Assembly: GCA_043806015.1 (NCBI GenBank)
Contig: JAZDHH010000015.1
Span: forward strand, 13,796 to 77,795
Reading direction: 5' to 3'
DNA length: 64,000 nucleotides
From: Nanobdellota archaeon
Lineage (GTDB): Archaea > Nanobdellota > Nanobdellia > Woesearchaeales > JAHIVG01
Position numbers and translations under genes: made by a program
The notes under the pieces: model-generated
Database searches by the model: none
Seen by the model: the letters and a program-made list of their open reading frames with translations, nothing else
Told to the model about the DNA's origin: nothing
Shown here: positions 6,245-47,493 of the stretch, one piece after another
Layout: each line of letters starts with the position of its first letter
Numbering within the stretch: position 1 is the first letter of the stretch

Positions 6245-7520
6245 ACTTTGCCAATTCCTGTTTTATTTTTTCTTTTTCGTGCCAGGCCCTTGTTTCGGCA
6301 GCACGAACCAGGAAGGCTGTCCAACGATCCCAATACTTTTCGCTGAGTTCCTCGTCCGAGTTTAATACGCGTCTCGGTTCCTGAAGATTTCCAGAAAGGA
6401 AAATAAATCCATCAGAAAGACCTGCACCCATAACGACGATGCCATGATAGGTGTCATGCCGGAGCCACCCATCCTCACGTGCCATGTCATAGGCGATGGG
6501 AGCCGAAGCGCCGGAATTGTTCCCCCTTCTTTCTACGCCATGAGTGTAGATGAAATCCGTAACAAGATCGTCATCCGCAGACTTGACAAAACCCTTATAC
6601 TGCTTCGCGGCGGACAACAAACCCGGCTTGTTCGGTTGATGGGGAACGACCTGAAAATTATTAGGCGTGATCAAGGGCAGACCTCGCTCTTCCAGAATCT
6701 TATTTGCTTCAACGATGACTAGCGGCATGCGGTCGCGAAGCGTGCGGACGATGAAAGGATGCACGTCATTCCCTTTCATGATGAAATATGGTCGGGGAAT
6801 ATGATCTAGTGTTTCAGGGACAGGAAATTCGCCTTCTCGGTAGCGGAACGGATTGACGAGGCCGGTCGGCATGAGGATGTGATGTCCCTTCCCCCCATAG
6901 GTAGCAGTATCTATGAAAAGGATCTCTGGAGCCTCACTATCTTCGGCGGAAAGGACAAAGGCCGCTGCGCCATCGGAGGACATCACCCTGAATGTCCGAT
7001 CATTGGCAAGAGGATAATAGGACATTGTATCTGTTGCTAGAACCAGGTTCACTTTAGATAGAAGAGATCTATACTCTGGCCCAAACCTCGCGAAATTCTC
7101 TATCTCTTGATGCTGGAGGTTGTCACGACCGACTTCAACCGCGTTGACAAAACCTGAACAGCCCATGATCACATCCAAGGCAGGCTTTCCTTCGATGCCG
7201 AGAAGGTGACTAACCAAGGCCGAGGCTGGCGGCTCAGTGTATTCCCCACTCACATTATGCGCAACATAGACATGGGAGACATCGTCTAACGTCTTTCCGG
7301 CATCCGCCAGCGCCTTTTCCGCAGCGACGGCCGCGAGCACATAGAGATTTTGATGAGGGCCAATCCACCCGCGCGTTTCCACACCAATGGTATTTTTTAT
7401 CCAATCAGCGGTTGTATTAAGGGCAACAATCCGCTCAAGGTGCGTGTTCGGAACTTGGTACTGAGCATCCGCCCTCCCTGTACCAATAACCCGAATAGGC
7501 CTTATAGGGGAAGAATACAT
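6237..7520 (-). CDS. thiolase-fold condensing enzyme, FabH (KAS III)/HMG-CoA synthase-like
   Basis: N-terminal VIGTGRADAQYQVPNTHLERIV and an active-site-like GCSGFVNA match the FabH family. At 427 aa it carries an extension beyond a typical FabH. Confidence 0.65.
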   Translation of the reverse strand: MYSSPIRPIRVIGTGRADAQYQVPNTHLERIVALNTTADWIKNTIGVETRGWIGPHQNLYVLAAVAAEKALADAGKTLDDVSHVYVAHNVSGEYTEPPASALVSHLLGIEGKPALDVIMGCSGFVNAVEVGRDNLQHQEIENFARFGPEYRSLLSKVNLVLATDTMSYYPLANDRTFRVMSSDGAAAFVLSAEDSEAPEILFIDTATYGGKGHHILMPTGLVNPFRYREGEFPVPETLDHIPRPYFIMKGNDVHPFIVRTLRDRMPLVIVEANKILEERGLPLITPNNFQVVPHQPNKPGLLSAAKQYKGFVKSADDDLVTDFIYTHGVERRGNNSGASAPIAYDMAREDGWLRHDTYHGIVVMGAGLSDGFIFLSGNLQEPRRVLNSDEELSEKYWDRWTAFLVRAAETRAWHEKEKIKQELAKST

Positions 7521-7596
7521 TTTTCTGTAAGAAATAGGGGCATCATTAAATATTTATTGGAAAAAATTATTAAAGAACCATGATGAATCATGATTA

Positions 7597-8103
7597 ATGC
7601 GCGCCTTCATCGCCATCGATTTGCCGCAGGAAATGCATCCCGCGCTGCAGCAGATTCAGGAGCAGATCAAGGCCTTCGGCTCGTTCTCCTTCCCGAGGAG
7701 CTTCCACCTCACGCTGTTCTTCCTGGGCGAAATCTCCGAACAGCAGAAAGAGGACGTCGTGAAAAAGCTGTCGACGGCCCGCTTCTCCCCGTTTTCCTTC
7801 ACCCTGTCGGAGATCGGCTTCTTCGACAAGAGGGTGGTGTGGGCGGGCATCCGGCCTGAGGAAGAGACCATCAAGCTGCAGAAGGCCATCTGCTCTGCCC
7901 TCGGCATGCGGGATGATCGCTTCCATCCGCACATCACGCTCGCGAGGATCAAGCAGGCGAAGCCTGGCCTCAAGGAAGCGTGCGAGGAGATGAGGCTGCC
8001 TTCTGAAGAAATCCGCATCGAGAAATTCACGCTTTATAAAAGCACGCTGCTCGCTGACGGGCCGAGATACGAGACGATTGCCAGCTTCGAAGGATTTAAA
8101 TAA
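7597..8103 (+). CDS. thpR: RNA 2',3'-cyclic phosphodiesterase (LigT/ThpR, 2H phosphoesterase)
   Basis: Two H-x-T/S-x motifs (HLTLFFLG and HITLARI). The length of ~168 aa is typical. Confidence 0.85.
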   Translation: MRAFIAIDLPQEMHPALQQIQEQIKAFGSFSFPRSFHLTLFFLGEISEQQKEDVVKKLSTARFSPFSFTLSEIGFFDKRVVWAGIRPEEETIKLQKAICSALGMRDDRFHPHITLARIKQAKPGLKEACEEMRLPSEEIRIEKFTLYKSTLLADGPRYETIASFEGFK

Positions 8104-8132
8104 GAAGACTTGGCATTGAAGGCTGGTGATGC

Positions 8133-8375
8133 ATGATGCATTTTGACACTTTCCTCCTTCGCGTTGGCGACCTGCTCAAGGAATACGCAGACAAGGAGAC
8201 CTTGCCCCAGGATTTCCGCCGAGAATGCCTCAAGGCGAGAGCATCCCTAGACAATGTCCGGCGACTTTCGGATAATGTGGGCGTCGGGCATATTCAGATC
8301 AGGAAACGTCGGAAATACTTAGGGTTGGGCGGGGAGACGTATCATGCTTCTCCGGAATTGGTGTTCCAGCACTGA
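8133..8375 (+). CDS. hypothetical small protein
   Basis: ORF with coding-like codon bias in its first two thirds. No recognisable domain. Confidence 0.3.
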   Translation: MMHFDTFLLRVGDLLKEYADKETLPQDFRRECLKARASLDNVRRLSDNVGVGHIQIRKRRKYLGLGGETYHASPELVFQH

Positions 8376-8423
8376 TGCTTCTTGGCAAAGCTTTAAAAAC
8401 CGCATTCTGCCTCTTTTCCTTGC

Positions 8424-8498
8424 GGGCCCGTAGCCTAGCCTGGATAAGGCGACAGCCTTCTAAGCTGTAGATCGGGGGTTCGAATCCCCCCGGGCTCA
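8424..8498 (+). tRNA. tRNA-Arg (anticodon TCT)
   Basis: Manual cloverleaf: acceptor GGGCCCG/CGGGCTC with one G-U, D stem GCCT/AGGC, anticodon stem ACAGC/GCTGT, loop CTTCTAA, T arm GGGGG-TTCGAAT-CCCCC, discriminator A. Confidence 0.85.
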
Positions 8499-8506
8499 TC
8501 AGCCCC

Positions 8507-8923
8507 ATGACCTGCAATTTTTGCCGGATCGCGAAGCACGTCAAGCCTGAACACATCGTCTATGAGGACAAGGCAGCGGTAGCCTTCCTGAGCGTGGAGC
8601 AGCTCTCGAAGGCCCATGTGCTTGTCATCCCGAAAAAGCACATCAGGGACATCTTCGACATCGACGAGAAAACTGCCGCCCATCTGATGCGAATCACGGT
8701 GAGGGTCGCGAAGGCTGTCAAGCGGACCGTTCGGCCGGCAGGCATCAACATCTACCAATGCAGCGGCAAAGCAGCTGACCAAGAGGTCATGCATTTCCAC
8801 CTGCACATCTTCCCCCGCTTCAAGGGCGACAACCTCTTTAATATCTATAACAACCATCATCCGAAATTTCGGAGGTCTTCCTACCTTGAAGCGATCGCCG
8901 AGAGGATTAGGAGATCGCTATGA
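8507..8923 (+). CDS. HIT (histidine triad) family hydrolase
   Basis: HFHLHIFPR histidine triad motif and ~138 aa length. Confidence 0.85.
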   Translation: MTCNFCRIAKHVKPEHIVYEDKAAVAFLSVEQLSKAHVLVIPKKHIRDIFDIDEKTAAHLMRITVRVAKAVKRTVRPAGINIYQCSGKAADQEVMHFHLHIFPRFKGDNLFNIYNNHHPKFRRSSYLEAIAERIRRSL

Positions 8924-9555
8924 TCCGCGCAATCTATTTCGACGGGTTCAAGACGCTGTTCAGATGGAAGAAGCCTGATCCCGAAGACATGATCCTCGAG
9001 CATTTCCGGCTGTCGTTGTCCTACACTGAGGTCCAACAGAGGGTCATGACAGTCCATTGCGATGCTTTTGGCCACGACATCGAGCGGTTCGAACTGAGAG
9101 CTGCACAAAACCTAGGATTGGATGGCTCGCAGAGGCAAGAGCTCAGCAGGCTGCTTCATGAAGCAGGCAGGAGGGCCGCGCTTGAGGGAGACGCGCAGCA
9201 CGTCATCGAGGAGCTGAAGGGCCGCGGCTATCGCCTCGGCCTCATCACCGACATCTGGCCGCACCCTATCGCAGATGGCATCATCCCCACATCGTTCATC
9301 CGCTTGTTTGACGTCTTCTCGCCGTCATATGCCGTAGGGAAAGTGAAGCCTGATCCGGAGCGTTTCCTGGCCGCGCTCCACGGAGTGAATCCGCACGAGG
9401 CGGCGATGATAGGGGACTCCATTGAGATGGACATCATGCCCGCAAAAAGCCTGGGCATGACCACCGTGCTCTTCGACCCCAGGCATGAGCATCGGAATCC
9501 GCCAGCGGATTACCAGGTCCCCTCGCTTGCCGACGTGCTGAAGATATTTCCATAA
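8920..9555 (+). CDS. HAD-superfamily hydrolase
   Basis: N-terminal IYFDGFKTLF motif I-like sequence and a C-terminal GDS…D motif. The start overlaps the HIT gene stop. Confidence 0.7.
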   Translation: MIRAIYFDGFKTLFRWKKPDPEDMILEHFRLSLSYTEVQQRVMTVHCDAFGHDIERFELRAAQNLGLDGSQRQELSRLLHEAGRRAALEGDAQHVIEELKGRGYRLGLITDIWPHPIADGIIPTSFIRLFDVFSPSYAVGKVKPDPERFLAALHGVNPHEAAMIGDSIEMDIMPAKSLGMTTVLFDPRHEHRNPPADYQVPSLADVLKIFP

Positions 9556-9588
9556 CGTTTAAAAAGATGGGGGAATGCCTTCCCCTTA

Positions 9589-9765
9589 TTGCGGGGGTGG
9601 CCTAGACGACAGCTTTTTACCCTCTCGGGTAAAAACCGGGGAAATACCGGCTGGCCTCTTCGTGTTTCCCAAATTCACTTGGGCAATGGGGGTTTCGGCT
9701 CTGCCTCAAGCCCCCAAAATCTTTATAAGCCAACAAAAAACAAGCATTCATATGCGGGGGTGGCC
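9589..9765 (+). repeat. 13-bp direct repeats (TGCGGGGGTGGCC at 9589-9601 and 9753-9765) flanking copy A of a conserved structured ~110-nt element (core 9610-9715)
   Basis: Exact 13-mer duplication of the 5' end of the tRNA-Cys gene. The enclosed element shares two covarying hairpins with the element at 49676-49785. Confidence 0.6.
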
Positions 9766-9826
9766 AAGCGGCTAAGGCGGCCGCCTGCAGAGCGGCTATT
9801 CGGGGGTTCGAATCCCTCCCCCCGCT
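9754..9826 (+). tRNA. tRNA-Cys (anticodon GCA)
   Basis: Manual cloverleaf: acceptor GCGGGGG/CCCCCGC, D stem GCC/GGC, anticodon stem GCCGC/GCGGC, loop CTGCAGA, T arm GGGGG-TTCGAAT-CCCTC. A T-rich tract follows. Confidence 0.85.
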
Positions 9827-9833
9827 CTTCTTA

Positions 9834-10403
9834 TTAAGAAACAGACTTGCACTTGGCCAGCAGGCTCTTGACTCTAGCGACCGGGAAGCCGATCACGTTT
9901 TCCTTGGATCCTCTGATGCCCGCGATAAGGTCCGCACCGCGGCCTTGGATGGCGAAGGCTCCGGCCTTGTCCAAGGGCTCTCCGGTGACGACATAATCTT
10001 GGATTGTTGCGTTGCTCAATCGCTTGAACCTGACCTCGGTCACTTCAGCTGCCTTCATCACGCGCTTGGTCTCACAATTGATCAGCGCGATGCCGGAGAT
10101 GACATGGACAGTCCTTCCGGAGAGGGATTCCAGCATGGCGACCGCCTGCGCTTTCGTCTTCGGCTTACCAAGTTTATTCTTCCCAAGGACCACGAACGTG
10201 TCCACGCCGATGACTACGCCTTCTCGTTTTGTGCGGGCCACGGCCTTTGCCTTGCCGACAGCCAGATGCATAGCGAGCGCTCTTGGCGGCAGTGGCAGCG
10301 TGAGATCCTCGCTGAAATCACCCGGCTCGACAGAAAAGGGGAGATTAAGCTTCTTTGCAAGAGCTATCCTGCGCGGAGAACCAGAAGCAAGAATGATCTT
10401 CAT
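9834..10403 (-). CDS. maf: Maf-like nucleoside triphosphate pyrophosphatase
   Basis: MKIILASGSPRRIALAKKLNL… matches the Maf N-terminus. The start overlaps the upstream gene's stop (ATGA). Confidence 0.8.
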   Translation of the reverse strand: MKIILASGSPRRIALAKKLNLPFSVEPGDFSEDLTLPLPPRALAMHLAVGKAKAVARTKREGVVIGVDTFVVLGKNKLGKPKTKAQAVAMLESLSGRTVHVISGIALINCETKRVMKAAEVTEVRFKRLSNATIQDYVVTGEPLDKAGAFAIQGRGADLIAGIRGSKENVIGFPVARVKSLLAKCKSVS

Positions 10404-11176
10404 GCCGGCTCGCAATAGAACCGCTCGAAGGCGGCGAGCTGCTTCAGGTTGCCCTGGAAGGTGAAGGTGATGTCGCTGTCCCGCGCTGCCTCGGCCTCGA
10501 GGGGGGTCCACATGACCATGCTGCTCGCTCCCCGCACACAGAGGAGGGCATAGATATCTCGGCAGCTGAGTATCCTCTCGCAGGTGATGGCCGACCATTC
10601 CGCATATGTCTCCGGATGAAGAGACATGAGCCGGGTGTCGTTCCGCTTGGTCATGATTTCAACATGGAAGGCCTCTGAGGTTATCGGCACGTTGATGCGC
10701 AGGTTGAGCGTCGGGAACTCCCTGACCCTGGCGACGTATTTGCTCCGGATGATCCAGAAAGGATCCAAATACGCGGATTTATACCGGACGCTGTCAACGA
10801 TGTACAGGCTCTGGTTGTCGGCGAGGTATCTCACGTGGTAGTCGAACGCGCCGTTGAGCTCAGGCAGCTGCTCGGCATAGGCCTCGAGGATGTCATCCCG
10901 ATACCAGCCGGAGAAGTTGTGGTAAAGCATGGCCGGCGGGGTGATGTCCTCTTCGGGCTGCACCTGAGGCAGGGGGAAGATGTCGATGATGGTGGCAGGC
11001 TCGGAGGGCTGTCCTGAAGGCGTCAGGTTCGTCGCGTTGCCCGGCTGCGGAGGCGTCAGGTTCGTCAGATCGTTCACGGGAAGCGGTGCCTTCGGCCGCA
11101 GGAAGAAATAATAGCCCGCGCCAGCGGCAAGCAGCAATACTGCTGAGGCGATAATAATGAGCATCAGCTTTTTCAT
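10400..11176 (-). CDS. secreted or membrane-anchored hypothetical protein with N-glycosylation sequons
   Basis: N-terminal signal/TM segment and NLT/NAT/NLT sequons. Translationally coupled to maf. Confidence 0.5.
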   Translation of the reverse strand: MKKLMLIIIASAVLLLAAGAGYYFFLRPKAPLPVNDLTNLTPPQPGNATNLTPSGQPSEPATIIDIFPLPQVQPEEDITPPAMLYHNFSGWYRDDILEAYAEQLPELNGAFDYHVRYLADNQSLYIVDSVRYKSAYLDPFWIIRSKYVARVREFPTLNLRINVPITSEAFHVEIMTKRNDTRLMSLHPETYAEWSAITCERILSCRDIYALLCVRGASSMVMWTPLEAEAARDSDITFTFQGNLKQLAAFERFYCEPA

Positions 11177-39759: not shown

Positions 39760-41042
39760 AAAAAGAACACCAACTGCTCTTGCTCCTCGTCGCCGTGGCG
39801 CTCATGCTCGCCATCCCCTTGGCCATCAGAGCGAAGCACGATGGAGGACTGCTCATCGGCCCTGAGCCGTATCTTGCCCTGGCTCACCGCGAGCTCACCG
39901 CTTTCAGCCTTCTCATCCTGGCCGGCGAAGCCATAGGCCCCGAGCACGTCGTGCGTTTCCTGCCCGGCATCTGCCTCCTGGCCGTCGCCCTCGTAAGCTA
40001 TACGCTCATCAGGAAAAGAGGCCGCGGCCACCGCTTCGCCATCATCGCTATCGGCCTTTTCGCTTTTTCGTCCGCGGCGATTGCGGCAGGACTCCGCTTC
40101 GGAGAGACCGCCCTCCACTTCGCCCTCGCAACTCTCGCCTTGCATTTCTTCCTCAGGCGGAAGGCTTGGCCGGTCTCCATCCTGTTCCTCAGCGTCATCG
40201 CCTGGAGCAATCCGGCGTCCGGCCTCATCACCCTCGTGAGCCTTTTCGCCTTTTCCGTAGGCTTCCGCCGACTCCTTCGCTTCTGCGCCGTCCTTATCCT
40301 TCCTGCCCTGACCATCCTTCTGCGAGGGCTTCATTTCCCCCAGGTCGCCTCTGCGGAAAGCATCGTCGCTGACTTCGGGTCGGTCATCGGCATATCCCTC
40401 TTCGCCATCCTCGCCGGCATCGGCGGCCTGGTCATCTGCTGGAGGCGGCGAGAGAAGCTTTCCGCCCTGTACCTCTTCCTCGCGATCACCCTGGTCGCCT
40501 TCCGCTTCTGGCCTGTCGAGGCTATGCTTTTCCTGGCTTTCTCTTTCGCCCTGTTCGGCGCCTTCGCGGTCGAGCGCCTATTTTCCATGAGATGGCAGCT
40601 CCAGCTCATTAAGTCATTGACGCTCATCACTTTTGCCTGCGGCATATTGTTCTCTGCGCTGGTGAGCATCCAGACCATGACGGCGGAGAAGCCCACTCCG
40701 GAGATGGTGCAGAGCTATCTCCAGCTGCATCGCCTGCCCCCCGGCATCGTCCTCAGCTATTCAGACTATTCTCCTTTCGTCAACTTCTTCTCCGGAAAGG
40801 GCGCTGTGCCCGAGGAAGCCGGCGACGCAATCTTCTATGCCCAGGAATTCCAGGATACTGTCAATCTTCTCCAACAGCAGAACGTCAGCTACATCTGGAT
40901 CGACACGGAGATGCGGCACGGCCTGGTATGGGACAATGAGGAGCAAGGCCTGCTCTACATGCTGCGCAACAACGTGACGTTCAAGAAGATCTACAACCGG
41001 AGCGGGATCGAGATCTGGACGGTCAATGCTTCCGCAACTTGA
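39756..41042 (+). CDS. polytopic membrane protein, tandem paralog of the upstream gene
   Basis: Same architecture as 38290-39759. ATGA-coupled to it. Confidence 0.5.
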   Translation: MKKEHQLLLLLVAVALMLAIPLAIRAKHDGGLLIGPEPYLALAHRELTAFSLLILAGEAIGPEHVVRFLPGICLLAVALVSYTLIRKRGRGHRFAIIAIGLFAFSSAAIAAGLRFGETALHFALATLALHFFLRRKAWPVSILFLSVIAWSNPASGLITLVSLFAFSVGFRRLLRFCAVLILPALTILLRGLHFPQVASAESIVADFGSVIGISLFAILAGIGGLVICWRRREKLSALYLFLAITLVAFRFWPVEAMLFLAFSFALFGAFAVERLFSMRWQLQLIKSLTLITFACGILFSALVSIQTMTAEKPTPEMVQSYLQLHRLPPGIVLSYSDYSPFVNFFSGKGAVPEEAGDAIFYAQEFQDTVNLLQQQNVSYIWIDTEMRHGLVWDNEEQGLLYMLRNNVTFKKIYNRSGIEIWTVNASAT

Positions 41043-41463
41043 TCAAGTCACCGATGGTCAACTGGCCTGAGGGCGCGACCTTCTGCGCTCCCTGCTGCTC
41101 ATCGACCTGTTCCACAAGCCGTATCCCTAAAAGATGCTCGAACTTCCGAGCCATCGGGATCGGCGGCTCGAAGCTGGAAGTCTCGATCTTGTGGATGAGC
41201 GAGACCTTCTCAGTTACCTTCTTTGCGAAGTCCTCATGATTCAGGCCGAGGGCTTCCCGCTTCTTGCGCATGCGCTCCGCGTAATCGGCCATGATGTGCT
41301 GCTCGGTCTTCGGCTTCTGCGGCAAAGCCTGCGGCTGCTGCCTCGGCTGTACCGCGCGGACCATCATGCCATGGCGGCTGCAGCGCTTGCAGACCGTCAG
41401 ATGCGTCCCTTCGATATCCACAACGAAGAGCTGGTCCTCTGAACCGCACATCTCGCATTGCAT
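41023..41463 (-). CDS. mbf1: archaeal MBF1-like protein (zinc ribbon plus XRE-type HTH)
   Basis: CEMCG…CKRC zinc ribbon and HTH …LGLNHEDFAKKVTEKVSLIHKIETS…. TTTATA about 24 nt upstream of ATG 41463. Confidence 0.8.
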   Translation of the reverse strand: MQCEMCGSEDQLFVVDIEGTHLTVCKRCSRHGMMVRAVQPRQQPQALPQKPKTEQHIMADYAERMRKKREALGLNHEDFAKKVTEKVSLIHKIETSSFEPPIPMARKFEHLLGIRLVEQVDEQQGAQKVAPSGQLTIGDLIKLRKH

Positions 41464-41495
41464 AGCCCTGGCGAGGCTTTCCGAGTATAAAAACG

Positions 41496-42323
41496 TTATG
41501 CTGGCCGAACAGAGAATTTCTTCACCAGCCTGGAGGGGTGGTAGCTCAGCTTCGCCTTCCGCAGCCCGGGGATGCCCAGGTCCTGCTCCCGATTGATCCA
41601 TGGGAAAGCGGAAAGGCGCTCGGCAAAGGCCTTGTTGACGAATGCGGAAAGCCCCCGGTAGTCGTTGTTGGCCTTCTCGAAGTGGATGACGTACGTGTCC
41701 TGGTTAAGGGGCTCGCCGAGGGCGAAGGCCTCGATGATGCCGTTGACGCGCACCGCGACTCCCTGGACAGCCAGTTCTTTGAGACACCTGAAGGATGCTT
41801 GGATCGCGTCATATTCGCCCTTGAGGAGCTCCCCTTCGCAATTGTGTTTCCTGCACCAGTCTTCCATGACCACGAGGCATTCATCCCTGTTTTTCAGAGA
41901 GACCTCCTCGACCTCAGGGGACAGCGCCGTGGCGCTATTGACGAAGCTGCGCTTCTCCTCATAACGGCTTCCCTGCAGCGTCGCAAGATCGCCCTGAGCG
42001 TAGACGTAGTCCTCTTGCGGCCGGTCCTCCTCGACAGCGAATCCCAGGGCTTTTGCTTTGGCAGCGAAAGACTCGTCCGTACGCAGCACCGGAGCATCGA
42101 TGCTTGGAAGCAGCTTTTCCGGAGCAGCCCCCACGGGCATGAAGAAGAAGGGCTTCATGACAGCAGCCTTGATGAGCAGATGGCCTTGTCGCTCTTCCCA
42201 GATTATTGGCCGAGCCTGCGTCCAGCAGAACAGGTTGGTGAACGTCAGCTCGGAGATGACAGGGGGGAAGCGGTTGAAATAGCGGTCAAAGAGTGTCTTG
42301 TCCTTGAGCTGGATTTCCTGCAT
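41496..42323 (-). CDS. DUF2156 (MprF C-terminal/GNAT-like) domain protein
   Basis: …LFDRYFNRFPPVISELTFTNLFCW… is typical of the DUF2156 family. Confidence 0.55.
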   Translation of the reverse strand: MQEIQLKDKTLFDRYFNRFPPVISELTFTNLFCWTQARPIIWEERQGHLLIKAAVMKPFFFMPVGAAPEKLLPSIDAPVLRTDESFAAKAKALGFAVEEDRPQEDYVYAQGDLATLQGSRYEEKRSFVNSATALSPEVEEVSLKNRDECLVVMEDWCRKHNCEGELLKGEYDAIQASFRCLKELAVQGVAVRVNGIIEAFALGEPLNQDTYVIHFEKANNDYRGLSAFVNKAFAERLSAFPWINREQDLGIPGLRKAKLSYHPSRLVKKFSVRPA

Positions 42324-42327
42324 GCGT

Positions 42328-43488
42328 TCAGATGCCCGCGTCCTTTCGGATGATCTCTGCCTTGTCCGTCCTCTCCCAGGTGAAGTCAGGATCATCCCTG
42401 CCGAAATGGCCGTACGCGGCGGTCTTCCTGAAGATCGGCCGTCGCAGCTTCAGATGCTCGATGATCGCTGCCGGCTTCATGGAGAAGTGCTTGAACACCA
42501 GCTCGCTGATGCGCTCTTCAGGGATCTTGTTCGTGCCGAAGCATTCGACCGCCACCGAGGTCGGCTGCGCGACGCCGATGCAGTAGGACACGGACACTTC
42601 GCATTTCTCTGCGAGGCCCGCGGCAACGAGGTTCTTGGCAATATAGCGGGCCATGTAGGCACCGCTCCGGTCGACCTTGCTCGGATCCTTTCCGGAGAAG
42701 CATCCTCCGCCATGGCGGCCGATGCCGCCATACGTATCGACGATGATCTTCCTTCCGGTGACCCCGGTGTCGCCCTCCGGTCCGCCGATCACGAAGCGGC
42801 CGGTCGCGTTGACAAATATCTTTGTCTTGGGGTCAAGCCATCTGCCCATGACCGGCTGGATGACGTTGGTGATTATGTCCTCCCGCACCCTCGCTTCCGC
42901 TACGGATTCCTGATGCTGCGCCGCGATGACCACCGCGTCGGATCGCAGGGCTTTGCCATCATGATATTCGATGGTGACCTGCGCCTTGCCGTCCGGCCCG
43001 AGATAGGGCAGCAGCTTGCCTTTCCTGACTTCCGCGAGCCTCCGCGTCAGCTTATGGGCGAGCAGGATGGGGAGAGGCATAAGCTCAGGGGTCTCGTTGC
43101 AGGCGAAGCCATACATTATGCCTTGGTCGCCGGCGCCCTGCTCATGGTCCTTGTCCTGGTTGACGCCGGCGGCGATGTCCGGGCTTTGCGCATGGATGGA
43201 GACGAGAACGCCTGCGTCATAGGCATCGATGCCATAGCTCGGGTCGGTGTAGCCGATCTCCGCGAGGACATTGCGAGTGAGCTTCTGGACATCCACGAAG
43301 CCTTTCGTGGTGACTTCGCCGGCGCAGATGATGAGGCCGGTCGTGGTCAAGCACTCAATCGCGACCCTGGACGCGGGATCCTGCCGTATGAGCTCATCGA
43401 CGATAGCGTCGCTGATCTGGTCGCAGATCTTGTCCGGATGGCCTTCGGTGACACTCTCAGAGGTAACTAATTTTTTCATCGCAATCAC
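42328..43488 (-). CDS. mat: S-adenosylmethionine synthetase, archaeal type (MAT)
   Basis: Full-length archaeal MAT, 386 aa. TATATAAAT at 43512-43520 upstream. Confidence 0.95.
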
Positions 43489-43521: not shown

Positions 43522-44217
43522 TTATGGGGCGGGGAAGGCGTAGAACCGGTCTCCGAGCACGAAGCATTGGCGGAGCCGTGCCTTGCGGAGCAGCGGGCCG
43601 AGCCTGCTGCCTTGCACATCACTGCCTTCCACGAGCGGATGGAAGGAAGGCAGCACGAGCAGCTTCTTCCTCTTCCATGTCGCCCAGACAAAGCATTTGA
43701 ACCGCTCTTCCCTGACGCCGGAGCGGACGGTGAAAGCGGGATGCTCATGACCGATGAACAGCACTTTGGCGCTTCTCACGATCAATTCCCTGTCGCCATG
43801 GAGAAAGGCATACGCACCCACCGCATGGCTTTTCACCAGGGATACCCCCCGTTTTGCGAGGATCGGCCTGAGCGCCGTGTCATGGTTCCCTTCGACCACG
43901 ATGACCTTCCGGCCCTGCTGCAACAGGTCGAGAAGCCGCAAGGTGTCCCTCCATTCCTGCTCATTGATCCCGCCAAAGTCATGCTTGACATCTCCCAGGA
44001 TGACGACGGTCTCCGGTCTTAACTGCGAGAGCAAGGAGGCCATCGTCGCCCTGATCTGCTGGAACTGCGTCTTGGGCACCAGGATGCCTTTCTGTAAAAG
44101 CGCTTGCTCATAGCCGAGGTGCAGGTCTGCTATGACGAGCGTCCGCCCCCTACGCAGGAAGGCAGCGGGGCCACAGAGCAGGATGTCCTCGGTGAGGGCA
44201 TAGCGGGGGAGCGCCAT
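43522..44217 (-). CDS. calcineurin-like metallophosphoesterase
   Basis: D-x-H…GD…GNHD motifs (IADLHLG, ILGDVKHD, EGNHD). Confidence 0.8.
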   Translation of the reverse strand: MALPRYALTEDILLCGPAAFLRRGRTLVIADLHLGYEQALLQKGILVPKTQFQQIRATMASLLSQLRPETVVILGDVKHDFGGINEQEWRDTLRLLDLLQQGRKVIVVEGNHDTALRPILAKRGVSLVKSHAVGAYAFLHGDRELIVRSAKVLFIGHEHPAFTVRSGVREERFKCFVWATWKRKKLLVLPSFHPLVEGSDVQGSRLGPLLRKARLRQCFVLGDRFYAFPAP

Positions 44218-44270: not shown

Positions 44271-44435
44271 ATGTGGGCTTGGAAAAAAAAGAGGGCTCTC
44301 CTCGAGGCGAGGCGTGTCGAGCGCGACATCAGGAAAGACCTCCCCCTCAGAGACATCAAGGAGTCCCATGCCGCCTTCGACCGACAGGTCAAGCAGCTGG
44401 AGTCCATCGTCTCCAAAAAAAAGAAAAAGCGCTAG
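44271..44435 (+). CDS. small basic coiled-coil protein (54 aa, not in the ORF track)
   Basis: TTTAAA about 25 nt upstream of ATG 44271. Strong GC3 bias. Translation: MWAWKKKRALLEARRVERDIRKDLPLRDIKESHAAFDRQVKQLESIVSKKKKKR. Confidence 0.35.
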   Translation: MWAWKKKRALLEARRVERDIRKDLPLRDIKESHAAFDRQVKQLESIVSKKKKKR

Positions 44436-45217
44436 TCCTTCAGGAAAGACTGCAGCGACCGCATACCCCTCGGCATTTTCATCTGCTTCGCGACCGCCTG
44501 CGCTTCTTTGTGCTCCAGGAGAATCCTGATGAACCTCTTCCTCGTCCGTGACGTCAGGACGCGGGTCAGCAAGGCGTCCGCCAGCCGCTCTGGCTTGGTG
44601 AGCGTCGATTCCTGCAGCATCGAGACAAGCATCTCCTCCTGGGCTTCCTTGCCCATGATCTTCTTGAGGTTGTCCGCGCTGAAGAGCTCCTGCACAAAGC
44701 GCTCCTTGGCCTGCTGCTTGAGGATCTTCTGGTCGCCGGTGTCGCTCAGCAGGCTGGCGAGCAGCTGCGGATTGGCCATGAGGATGTACTTCACGATCTG
44801 CATCGTGCGGACGACGCTGTTGCGGTAGTTCTGCTTGTCCAGGTGCAGGATGACCTCGGCCAGGATGCTTTCAAAGGAGATGACCTCGATGCCCTTCACC
44901 TTGGGCTCGCGCGCCAGGCCGAGGACGAGCACCTTGCGATATGGCTTGCTTGCGCCGACGAAATGCTCGATGAGGTCGTTGACCTTCTCCACCACCCCCT
45001 TGTCGAAGAACTTCGCCTCGTAATCCTCCGCCTTGAGGTTCTCCGACGGAGTGATCGACACCTGCGTCTCCATGTGCATGACATCCTTGAGGTTGCCGTC
45101 CTCGAGGCAGATCGCGAAGGTGTCCACCTCCCGGTTGTGCGCGACGCGGATGCTGTTCATGGTGAAAAAGCCCTTCTTGTGGAGCCACCAGTTGATGATC
45201 TCCTTCTCCGGATTCAT
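44432..45217 (-). CDS. hypothetical protein, possible PD-(D/E)xK-like N-terminal domain plus alpha-helical C-terminal domain
   Basis: …VDTFAICLEDGNLKDVMHMETQVS… candidate nuclease motif. Last gene of a four-gene minus-strand cassette. Confidence 0.45.
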   Translation of the reverse strand: MNPEKEIINWWLHKKGFFTMNSIRVAHNREVDTFAICLEDGNLKDVMHMETQVSITPSENLKAEDYEAKFFDKGVVEKVNDLIEHFVGASKPYRKVLVLGLAREPKVKGIEVISFESILAEVILHLDKQNYRNSVVRTMQIVKYILMANPQLLASLLSDTGDQKILKQQAKERFVQELFSADNLKKIMGKEAQEEMLVSMLQESTLTKPERLADALLTRVLTSRTRKRFIRILLEHKEAQAVAKQMKMPRGMRSLQSFLKD

Positions 45218-45909
45218 AGCGACACCCCCATCTTGCCCGCGAGCACGTCCCGCAGGTCATCTTCAGGAATAGAGCAGCCCCTGAGGCGCAGCCCCCAGAG
45301 CACGGCATCAAGCAAAACTTTTTTCGGCATCTTTTCAGGAAGATAATCGTCCAGCAGCCCGAGCTCCACCGCGACGAGGCAGAGCTCGAGCGAGCGTATC
45401 ACCCTGAGGCCGGACAGCCGCTTCTGGAGCGCGCGGAAGTTCTCCATGTCCACGACGATCTTGGTATGGAGCTTCTCCTGAAGGATGTCGCGGAGCCCCA
45501 AAGGCTGCTCGATGAGCAGCCGCGAGGTGCGCTCGTCGATGACGATGGCCTTCGCCTCATAGGCAAGGGCGCCGGCGATGGCCTCCACCTCCGCCTGGTG
45601 CAGCAGCGTGATGCTCGTGCCTTTCGCCGAGTAGAGGTTGTTTGCGAGGGCGAACAGTACGTCGCGGTCCTTGTCCAGCTTGCCGCGCGGCGCGATGACG
45701 AAGGTCCCGGTCTTGATCTCACGCAGGACCTGCAAGGCCTCGAACTCGAAGCGCTTGATGGCGAGCGGCTGCTCGACGAGCTCCCGCCTGACCGCCGGCG
45801 TGAGCAGGAACTGGCCCCTGAACCGCTCCTTGAGCGGCTTGAGGATCCAGAGCAGGTTGTTCGTGGCCAGGCTGATGACCGGTCCTGAGTCGAAGCTGAT
45901 GGTTCTCAT
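45214..45909 (-). CDS. hypothetical protein with PIN-like N-terminal region
   Basis: MRTISFDSGPVISLA… and …AIVIDERTSR… resemble PIN acidic motifs. ATGA-coupled on both sides. Confidence 0.45.
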   Translation of the reverse strand: MRTISFDSGPVISLATNNLLWILKPLKERFRGQFLLTPAVRRELVEQPLAIKRFEFEALQVLREIKTGTFVIAPRGKLDKDRDVLFALANNLYSAKGTSITLLHQAEVEAIAGALAYEAKAIVIDERTSRLLIEQPLGLRDILQEKLHTKIVVDMENFRALQKRLSGLRVIRSLELCLVAVELGLLDDYLPEKMPKKVLLDAVLWGLRLRGCSIPEDDLRDVLAGKMGVSL

Positions 45910-46439
45910 AGGTTGAAGAGCGATTTCGCCGTCTCGAAGCGCGCTTTCATGCTGATCTTTCCCTTGGGCGAGGGAAGCTCGTGCAGCTTCCCAACATAGC
46001 CCATGAGCTCCCATTGCGAGACACCCAGGATGGAGGCGGCCTGCGCCAGGGAGATGCCGTGCTCATATAATTTTGTCCCTTTCTTGATCTCGGCCTGGTT
46101 GATGACCTCGATGATGTAGAGGCGCAGCCGATGGTCCGCAGATTGGATGATGGTGAAGAGGGAACGGATGGTCTTGCGGTACGCGCCTTCATCGCCAGAT
46201 TTTAGTTGACATTCCGCCTGCGCGAGGCCTTCCCAGACGCCTTTGGGCATCCTGCCCTCCCGTTCCGTTATCTTGGACATTGCATAGAGCAGGATCGCGA
46301 CAGCGACAGAATCCTCGTCCTGGAAGATGGACGCGTTGTGGATGGTGTGGTTGCTCAGCTCCTTGATGGCCTGGACGCTCAATGACGGGTCGAGGGACCT
46401 GAGGACCTGAAGAATGTCATCGCGGACAACCGGTTCCAT
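45906..46439 (-). CDS. hypothetical HTH-containing protein
   Basis: C-terminal …GISLAQAASILGVSQWELMGYVGK… HTH. Confidence 0.5.
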   Translation of the reverse strand: MEPVVRDDILQVLRSLDPSLSVQAIKELSNHTIHNASIFQDEDSVAVAILLYAMSKITEREGRMPKGVWEGLAQAECQLKSGDEGAYRKTIRSLFTIIQSADHRLRLYIIEVINQAEIKKGTKLYEHGISLAQAASILGVSQWELMGYVGKLHELPSPKGKISMKARFETAKSLFNL

Positions 46440-46460
46440 ACTGTTGGAAAAAGCATGAGA

Positions 46461-46586
46461 TTATTTAAAATTTTCCTGGCGATCCCTTTCTGTGAGCCGC
46501 AAATCGACGACTTCCTGCTGCTTCAGCATGGACTCGACTTCAGAACGTGTCATCCCTAACAACGCTGCGAGGTCATCCACTTTCAT
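46461..46586 (-). CDS. small HTH (excisionase/MerR-like) protein
   Basis: MKVDDLAALLGMTRSEVESMLKQ…. The ORF may start further upstream, at 46685. Confidence 0.3.
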   Translation of the reverse strand: MKVDDLAALLGMTRSEVESMLKQQEVVDLRLTERDRQENFK

Positions 46587-46717
46587 TAGCCCGAAACGTG
46601 CATGAGGTGATTCATAAATGTTTTGGTTCTCAAAAAACGCGCCATTTCTCCATGCATTGAAAAAGGATATGCACGACAATAGCAACGTTTATAAACATCC
46701 CTAGCCAAAAATAATGC

Positions 46718-47308
46718 ATGGCCAAGGCAAAGCCGCTCGGCGTCCACGTCACGAACTATGAAGTGAAAAGCCAGGACTTCCCTTTCCATGCCCGGAGCTT
46801 CTATGTCATGGTGCATGAGTGGATGCTCGAGCATGAGTTCGCCCCCGACGCCGCCGACCCCAACTTCCCGGAGACCATGTACTACGAGGCGAGACAGCAG
46901 GACGGCAGGCGGGAGATCTGGTGCTGGTGGCGCAACAAGTACGTGCCGCAGAACAACCCATTCTACCGCTACGCCCTCAACGTGAACATGCACTGGCTCG
47001 GCGCGAAGGACACCGACATCGTGCAGAACGGCCGCAAGCTCAAGCTCCAGAAAGGCGAGTTCTGGTTCTCGGTGCAGGCAGTCCTCGAGGTCGACTACCA
47101 GAACAAGTGGCGCACCCACTGGCTCCTCAAGCATCTCCTGGAGACGTTCTGGAAACGCTTCATCTGGAAGGACCTCGAGAAGCACCGGCACACGCTGTAC
47201 AAGATATCCTATGACCTGCGCAACGATGTCATGCAGTTCCTGCAGATCCGGCAGCCGGAGCAAAAACCGAAATCCTGGTGGCCGGCGATGGGCTATGTGG
47301 AAAACTAA
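46718..47308 (+). CDS. hypothetical Trp-rich protein
   Basis: GTTTATAAAC TATA about 25 nt upstream. 14 Trp residues in 196 aa. No recognised domain. Confidence 0.5.
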   Translation: MAKAKPLGVHVTNYEVKSQDFPFHARSFYVMVHEWMLEHEFAPDAADPNFPETMYYEARQQDGRREIWCWWRNKYVPQNNPFYRYALNVNMHWLGAKDTDIVQNGRKLKLQKGEFWFSVQAVLEVDYQNKWRTHWLLKHLLETFWKRFIWKDLEKHRHTLYKISYDLRNDVMQFLQIRQPEQKPKSWWPAMGYVEN

Positions 47309-47392: not shown

Positions 47393-47493
47393 AGGCCCCG
47401 CCTCCGTAGCATAGTAGCCATTGCGGCGGACTTGTATATTGCCGGAGAAATCCGCAGGTCGAGGGTGCAACTCCCTCCGGAGGCTCTTTGCCC

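Follow-up and report, generated by a model that had tools for sequence, protein, structure and literature searches.

Gene layout of the A-D locus

We analyzed a 64,000-nucleotide (nt) stretch from a Nanobdellota archaeon (Woesearchaeales; contig JAZDHH010000015.1, positions 13,796 to 77,795 of the forward strand), here called the window, and in it a run of four minus-strand genes, A to D, of which B and C form the subject of this report. A sequence-only reading of this DNA had described the four open reading frames (ORFs), and the ORF list and the sequence confirmed their positions. Gene A (46461-46586) encodes 41 amino acids (aa) from its ATG and carries one weak helix-turn-helix (HTH)-like motif. 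Gene B (45906-46439) encodes a 177-aa helical partner of C with a UPF0175-like HTH. Gene C (45214-45909) encodes a predicted VapC-like PIN nuclease of 231 aa, counted from an internal ATG of the ORF at 45214-46014. Gene D (44432-45217) encodes 261 aa, in which a PD-(D/E)xK-fold domain at the N terminus is followed by a helical domain at the C terminus. Many full-length homologues were found for each of B, C, and D, which are therefore real genes. All four genes had been described as coupled through ATGA overlaps; this was the case for B/C (ctATGAgaac) and C/D (gctATGAatc) but not for A/B, which are separated by a gap of 21 nt (A stop codon TAA at 46461, B start at 46439).

The metallophosphoesterase gene, the basic 54-aa ORF, and the divergent Trp-rich ORF reported beside A-D were all found. 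The metallophosphoesterase (43522-44217, minus strand) is of the SbcD-related archaeal type, matching TIGR00024 above the cutoff (E value of 1.2e-45) as well as Pfam Metallophos. The Lys-rich 54-aa ORF, designated S (44271-44435, plus strand), is convergent with D and overlaps it by 4 nt. The Trp-rich gene, designated W (46718-47308, plus strand), encodes 196 aa and is transcribed divergently; it is a neighbor whose membership in the B-C pair is unsupported. Related loci in other genomes are named L001, L007, and so on.

Protein C adopts the PIN fold and keeps its acidic site

The earlier suggestion that C resembles PIN nucleases was borne out, as the protein shows the PIN fold and its acidic site is intact. 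The nearest solved structures in a structure comparison were VapC26, VapC2, VapC30, and others, and the C terminus forms a DUF3368-like helical extension. A homologue search returned 435 proteins of about 230 aa, all from Woesearchaeota/Nanoarchaeota and 43 to 53% identical over their full length. Residues D7, E43, E57, D125, E126, R130, E134, R172, S173, and W205 were invariant in a 29-sequence alignment. Over 84 distinct sequences, E43, D125, E126, and E134 were found in every one, and D7 was found in 83. C is therefore predicted from its sequence to be an active metal-dependent PIN endonuclease, and by analogy with VapC its substrate is most likely RNA. Pfam and NCBIfam scans of the window protein returned no family match. 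Precomputed annotation places PF11848 (DUF3368, the COG2405 PIN family) on most C homologues, in some cases with E values of ≤1e-5.

Protein B is an enlarged UPF0175-like partner

The homologue search for B returned 976 proteins of about 183 aa, and the window protein is 100% identical to a protein from a metagenome-assembled genome labeled "Nanoarchaeota archaeon." The N-terminal portion of about 110 residues holds a strongly conserved motif, ELSNHTIHNASIFQDEDS, in a domain of an unnamed family. The C-terminal part follows the consensus KKGxKLYEHGISLAxAAxxLGISQWELMxYxGK, with the HTH at approximately residues 120 to 150 and a conserved C-terminal tail after it. UPF0175 (PF03683) gave subthreshold matches to this same C-terminal region in 28 of 29 B-family members, with a best E value of 1e-4. 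At the level of sequence, B is a UPF0175-like HTH partner of C. Two HTH proteins had been claimed for the locus; the claim stood for B, and A has a single weak motif that gave only subthreshold Pfam matches (UPF0175, E value of 0.004; HTH_17, E value of 0.06). Across all five proteins (A to D and W), scans of Pfam, NCBIfam, PADLOC, and PHROGs returned subthreshold matches only, and PDB sequence searches with the single proteins and with profiles of B, C, D, and W gave a sole match, that of B to a designed HTH-repeat protein. The notion that B is more conserved than C was rejected, since the 64% mean column identity behind it came from a biased top-hit alignment of B.

Distribution of the B-C pair

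One genome per GTDB species was scanned for relatives of C, and 495 stretches encode one; the loci described in detail are the best 80 of these 495. At least 495 species-representative genomes, all from Woesearchaeota/Nanoarchaeia (a count of genomes and not a share of the Woesearchaeota genomes), thus encode a C relative, and the best 80 loci come from 80 different assemblies. The record titles of these 80 refer to Woesearchaeota, Nanoarchaeia, or Nanobdellota, except for several that read "uncultured Methanosarcinales." Many contigs with the pair (e.g., L009, L015, and L019) carry the title "uncultured Methanosarcinales archaeon," which looks like mislabeled taxonomy.

In 77 of the 80 loci, the gene immediately upstream of C is B. 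Among 76 loci, 44 show a 4-nt overlap between the stop codon of B and the start codon of C, and in 66 the two genes are no more than 30 nt apart. The 64-kb window holds one copy each of B and C. Searches of IMG/VR, PLSDB, and INPHARED, which are collections of viral, plasmid, and phage sequences, respectively, found no relatives of C. The sequence-only reading had taken A to D for a candidate defense or toxin-antitoxin (TA) module, an idea that, in its own terms, universal conservation in the lineage with fixed synteny would overturn. Since the B-C pair is single copy, lineage wide, and fixed in its B-to-C order, the module reading is refuted on those terms.

Protein D belongs to a separate family

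The earlier guess that D contains a PD-(D/E)xK-like domain proved right at the level of fold, as the protein has the alpha-beta-beta-beta-alpha-beta core of restriction endonucleases. The canonical motif, with Asp in strand 2 and (D/E)xK in strand 3, was not found: among 41 sequences, D32 is less than 90% conserved and no Lys follows E50. Strand 3 instead reads H48-x-E50-x-x-x-S54, and R137, Q140, and K143 are conserved on a later helix; together with E4 and D127, these residues (H48, E50, S54, R137, Q140, and K143) make up the conserved set. A word-indexed search found six homologues of D, and an exhaustive profile search yielded 322 clusters at 50% identity, including 80 with E values of ≤1e-30; most of the top matches listed are near full length. 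A per-member family scan gave no consistent Pfam family. D differs from AF1548 (PDB 1y88) and other PD-(D/E)xK proteins (the FokI cleavage domain, NucS, Hjc, and UPF0102) in that the canonical D...(D/E)xK residues are unconserved, its helical C-terminal domain, about 110 aa long, is unique to it, and D as a whole lacks a Pfam family.

Among the 80 genome loci, just 3 have D next to C, as do 4 of the 39 metagenome loci that were retrieved with D; D also follows C in L088, which was found by exact protein look-up. Its neighbors elsewhere include genes for thymidylate kinase, dUTPase, a wyosine radical-SAM enzyme, an Na/H exchanger, AP_endonuc_2, a PIN_9/Fcf1-like protein, Rpo7, Spt4, S24e, and S27a. 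D usually stands apart from C, among genes for tRNA modification, RNA polymerase, and ribosomal proteins, indicating that it is a separate conserved gene. It is joined to B-C, overlapping C, only in a small subclade of close relatives of the window. D thus represents a Woesearchaeota family of its own, which combines the PD-(D/E)xK fold with a noncanonical active site; this family is missing from Pfam, and its conserved residues are noncanonical.

The two smallest ORFs have a narrow distribution. Homologues of A were found only in L007, L008, and L089 (54 to 65% identity), and those of S in the same three loci, at the same convergent position (43 to 49% identity); small ORFs resembling S come after D in L087 and L088 as well. 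Both A and S are clade specific. A 77-aa protein is often encoded just downstream of C (6828-7061 in L001 and 12 of the loci L007 to L086) and is made up of a roughly 35-aa peptide (VAKxGVKKEGGYLYFVDKxGDxSRAxMARG) in duplicate. The possibility that S is this 77-aa gene was rejected, as the sequences are unrelated.

Recurrent neighbors of the pair

Of the 54 loci with enough upstream DNA, 31 have the vesicle genes arvABC (oapABC; GTPase, PF09846, and PF09845) in divergent orientation no more than 3 kb upstream of C. In the closest relatives of the window, the order is W, arvC, arvB, and arvA, followed by the divergent A, B, C, D, S, and the phosphoesterase, with arvC-arvB-arvA between W and A in L007 (1681-4257), L008, and L089. 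In the window itself, W and A are only 131 nt apart (46586-46718), and a search of the full 64 kb turned up neither arvA nor arvB. The vesicle-GTPase operon thus seems to have been lost or moved elsewhere in this particular lineage. ArvABC drives the formation of RNA-carrying extracellular vesicles in Haloferax and has been reported to be widespread in DPANN archaea (PMC10927574).

Protein W is a conserved Woesearchaeota family with invariant Y29, W71, R72, K107, and G113; it had no Pfam match and no PDB sequence match. Its homologues occur in 17 of the 80 loci, usually downstream of arvC, and comprise 19 distinct sequences; the L007 protein is 80% identical. Two loci carry tandem paralogues (L058, 412-1774, and L086, 230-1455).

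Downstream of B-C, a DUF87 ATPase is encoded in 24 of the 80 loci and a 395-aa metallophosphoesterase in 25. In L001, the downstream block (7158-10929) comprises the DUF87 (HerA-type) ATPase, genes of 149 and 170 aa, and the 395-aa metallophosphoesterase. The window lacks this DUF87/metallophosphoesterase block, which looks similar to a repair cluster of the HerA/Mre11 type. In L007, L008, and L089, the metallophosphoesterase follows D and S as it does in the window, so that this synteny is kept in the closest relatives.

Search for mobile-element and defense associations

A tRNA targeted by mobile elements had been placed about 2.5 kb from the cassette. The gene, tRNA-Thr(TGT) at 47400-47486, actually lies 92 nt past W and about 0.8 kb from A, and signs of its use as an integration target were not found. 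The tRNA region has no direct repeats like those of attachment (att) sites, the GC fraction of 0.54 to 0.61 compared with about 0.58 in the flanks shows no compositional step, no integrase was found near A-D among the window ORFs, and only housekeeping genes lie nearby. The mobile-element idea was therefore set aside as unsupported, with no viral, plasmid, or phage relatives of C, no tRNA repeats, and no GC shift. An Rfam scan of the region returned the tRNA alone. At 87 nt, the tRNA gene is long, suggesting an intron or another insertion; Rfam aligns its entire 71-position tRNA model over 47400-47485.

PADLOC, proposed as a check on the defense idea, reported no system. It returned four PDC-S70 matches to C (E values of 1e-4 to 0.02) over a PIN motif of about 30 residues and nothing for A, B, D, or W.

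Relationship to known systems

UPF0175 occurs exclusively next to COG2405 PIN genes (Matelska 2017, PMC5499597), and the UPF0175 (COG2886)/COG2405 pair has been predicted to be a type II TA system (Makarova 2009, PMC2701414). Given the UPF0175 region in B and the published description of that pair, B-C appears to be its relative with both proteins enlarged: B has 177 to 185 aa against the 75 positions of the UPF0175 model and has a conserved extra N-terminal domain, and C has about 230 aa. As in TA systems, the genes are adjacent, codirectional, and tightly coupled, with the gene in the antitoxin position upstream, and C has the conserved acidic catalytic residues of a PIN toxin. TA systems are mobile and unevenly distributed (Makarova, PMC2701414). 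In contrast to the UPF0175/COG2405-DUF3368 PIN pair, B-C is neither mobile, patchy, nor multicopy. It is a single-copy pair confined to one lineage and spread through it (495 genomes) with conserved neighbors, the mobile-element collections searched do not contain it, and its Pfam matches in the current library are subthreshold or absent. B-C shares with VapBC the PIN fold, the catalytic acidic residues, and an upstream, overlapping partner gene. However, B is not an antitoxin of the AbrB, ribbon-helix-helix, or Phd type, and B-C is vertical and fixed, whereas VapBC is multicopy and patchy.

The PIN nucleases with cellular RNA substrates include Nob1, Fcf1/Utp24-like proteins, and HARP. C is similar to Nob1, the Fcf1/Utp24-like proteins, and the HARP protein-only RNase P in being a single-copy, lineage-wide PIN nuclease, and its distribution suggests a role like that of these housekeeping enzymes. 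It differs from them in lacking a zinc ribbon, and Pfam scans of C and its family members detected no sequence match to PIN_5, PIN_9, or Fcf1. A separate PIN_9/Fcf1-like gene exists in related genomes.

A literature search found no paper describing this B-C pair. Its family type and PIN fold are known; the enlarged two-domain partner B, the lineage-wide fixation, the recurrent arvABC neighborhood, and the Pfam-less D family are new.

Interpretation of the B-C pair

Rather than being a single module of four genes, the region has the B-C pair as its core. We favor, with moderate confidence, the explanation that B-C is a TA-derived (UPF0175/COG2405-PIN-like), enlarged pair that has become fixed as a single-copy, translationally coupled cellular gene pair across Woesearchaeota/Nanoarchaeia. 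Because the pair is fixed, is missing from the mobile-element collections searched, and stands in housekeeping synteny, its most likely function is a cellular one common to the lineage, for example regulated RNA cleavage or the control of growth, and not addiction or antivirus defense. B would bind C through its conserved tail and/or its N-terminal domain, gating or directing the nuclease, and C would act as an Mg-dependent endonuclease, probably an RNase. The HTH of B may bind DNA at the promoter of the pair, which in many genomes is shared with the divergent arvABC. Taken together, B-C is probably a nuclease that is gated by B and acts in a cellular process. Across 40 loci, pairwise identities covary among B, C, and ArvA (Mantel P values of 0.002 to 0.01), and B and C evolve faster than ArvA, which fits mainly vertical inheritance of a fixed pair.

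Several observations weigh against this interpretation. The median pairwise identities are 42% for B and 47% for C, compared with 74% for ArvA, and the distance correlations are modest (rho of 0.24 to 0.41), leaving room for some horizontal exchange of B-C inside the lineage. C lacks an adjacent B in 3 of the 80 loci (L014, L022, and L029), and the 495 genomes are a count from which a share of the lineage does not follow. Every UPF0175 match is below the Pfam cutoff, the window protein scoring 20.2 bits against 27.9 bits. A current Pfam-A hmmscan at an E value of ≤0.1 found PF11848/DUF3368 in 0 of 29 C-family members, which disagrees with the precomputed annotation; a change to the model, or its removal, between Pfam releases may be the reason. 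Binding of B to C we infer from gene order and family analogy, and a fixed chromosomal TA system would look much alike at the sequence level.

If the favored explanation is right, B-C would clearly exemplify a PIN/HTH pair of the TA type that is fixed, and passed on vertically, throughout an archaeal lineage, and C would be a core cellular nuclease in the Woesearchaeota, which have small genomes and no cultured model. The recurrent adjacency to arvABC provides a testable lead on the role of the pair.

The strongest competitor, which we nevertheless consider unlikely, is that B-C is a selfish VapBC-type type II TA system (UPF0175 antitoxin and COG2405 PIN toxin) that became fixed by addiction in the Woesearchaeota ancestor and still acts as a growth-arrest or abortive-infection switch. 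The HTH gene upstream, the 4-nt stop/start overlap, the intact PIN catalytic site, the family-level likeness to the predicted UPF0175/COG2405 pair, and the weak PADLOC PDC-S70 matches over the PIN motif (E value of about 1e-4) would all be expected of such a system. A selfish element would not be expected to occur just once per genome, within a conserved neighborhood, in at least 495 species that all belong to a single lineage, nor would searches of plasmids, phages, and viral contigs be expected to find no relatives of C. Both proteins are also much larger than usual, and the extra N-terminal domain of about 110 aa in B is odd for a labile antitoxin. In L014 (4992-5708) and L022 (5001-5702), moreover, C stands without an adjacent B, next to PurD-like or aminotransferase-like genes, and yet its catalytic site is intact.

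A role in DNA metabolism is improbable but has some contextual evidence. B-C, joined in the clade of the window by D and the metallophosphoesterase, would act on DNA in a replication/repair cluster, with C as a structure-specific PIN-like nuclease and D as a PD-(D/E)xK nuclease. Many loci have the DUF87 (HerA-type) ATPase and the 395-aa metallophosphoesterase downstream of B-C, a PD-(D/E)xK-fold protein and the SbcD-related phosphoesterase follow C in the clade of the window, and D is found elsewhere near an AP_endonuc_2 gene, thymidylate kinase, and dUTPase. As noted above, the DUF87-containing block is absent from the window.

A narrower version of the cellular-pair explanation ties the pair to its divergent neighbor, and we rate it as slightly less probable than the repair role. 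B-C would be an ancient TA-derived nuclease/regulator pair taken over by the cell and functionally linked to arvABC; B could control the shared promoter region, and the PIN nuclease C could process RNA loaded into extracellular vesicles. If true, this would link RNA cleavage to cell-to-cell exchange in host-dependent DPANN archaea.

That A-B-C-D, with or without W, form one antivirus defense system with two nuclease effectors and HTH regulators is very improbable and is largely refuted by distribution: an HTH and two nuclease folds in an overlapping gene string resemble a defense island, and the weak PDC-S70 matches point the same way, but the four genes occur together only in close relatives of the window (A only in L007, L008, and L089), D adjoins C in 3 of 80 loci and is usually at home among tRNA modification, RNA polymerase, and ribosomal protein genes, B-C is lineage wide and single copy, and the locus has no PADLOC system, PHROG, or mobile-element match and is surrounded by housekeeping genes.

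Other features of the window

An oligo-T tract (T5CT8; 44415-44428, minus strand), read from the sequence, begins 4 nt past the stop codon of D and is likely an archaeal transcription terminator of the B-C-D unit; it is also the complement of the Lys codons that end S. In the 131-nt W/A intergenic region, a palindromic TATA-like box, TTTATAAA (46688-46695, strand not assigned), lies 22 nt upstream of the W start codon and is a putative promoter element. The wider context of the window is archaeal housekeeping, with genes for aMBF1, an LPG_synthase_C-domain protein, MetK, Adk, and TruD. The longest ORFs of aMBF1 (41023-41601) and the LPG_synthase_C-domain protein (41496-42395) overlap by 106 nt. 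The TIGR00270 match of aMBF1 begins at ORF residue 48, suggesting that its true start is probably an internal Met.

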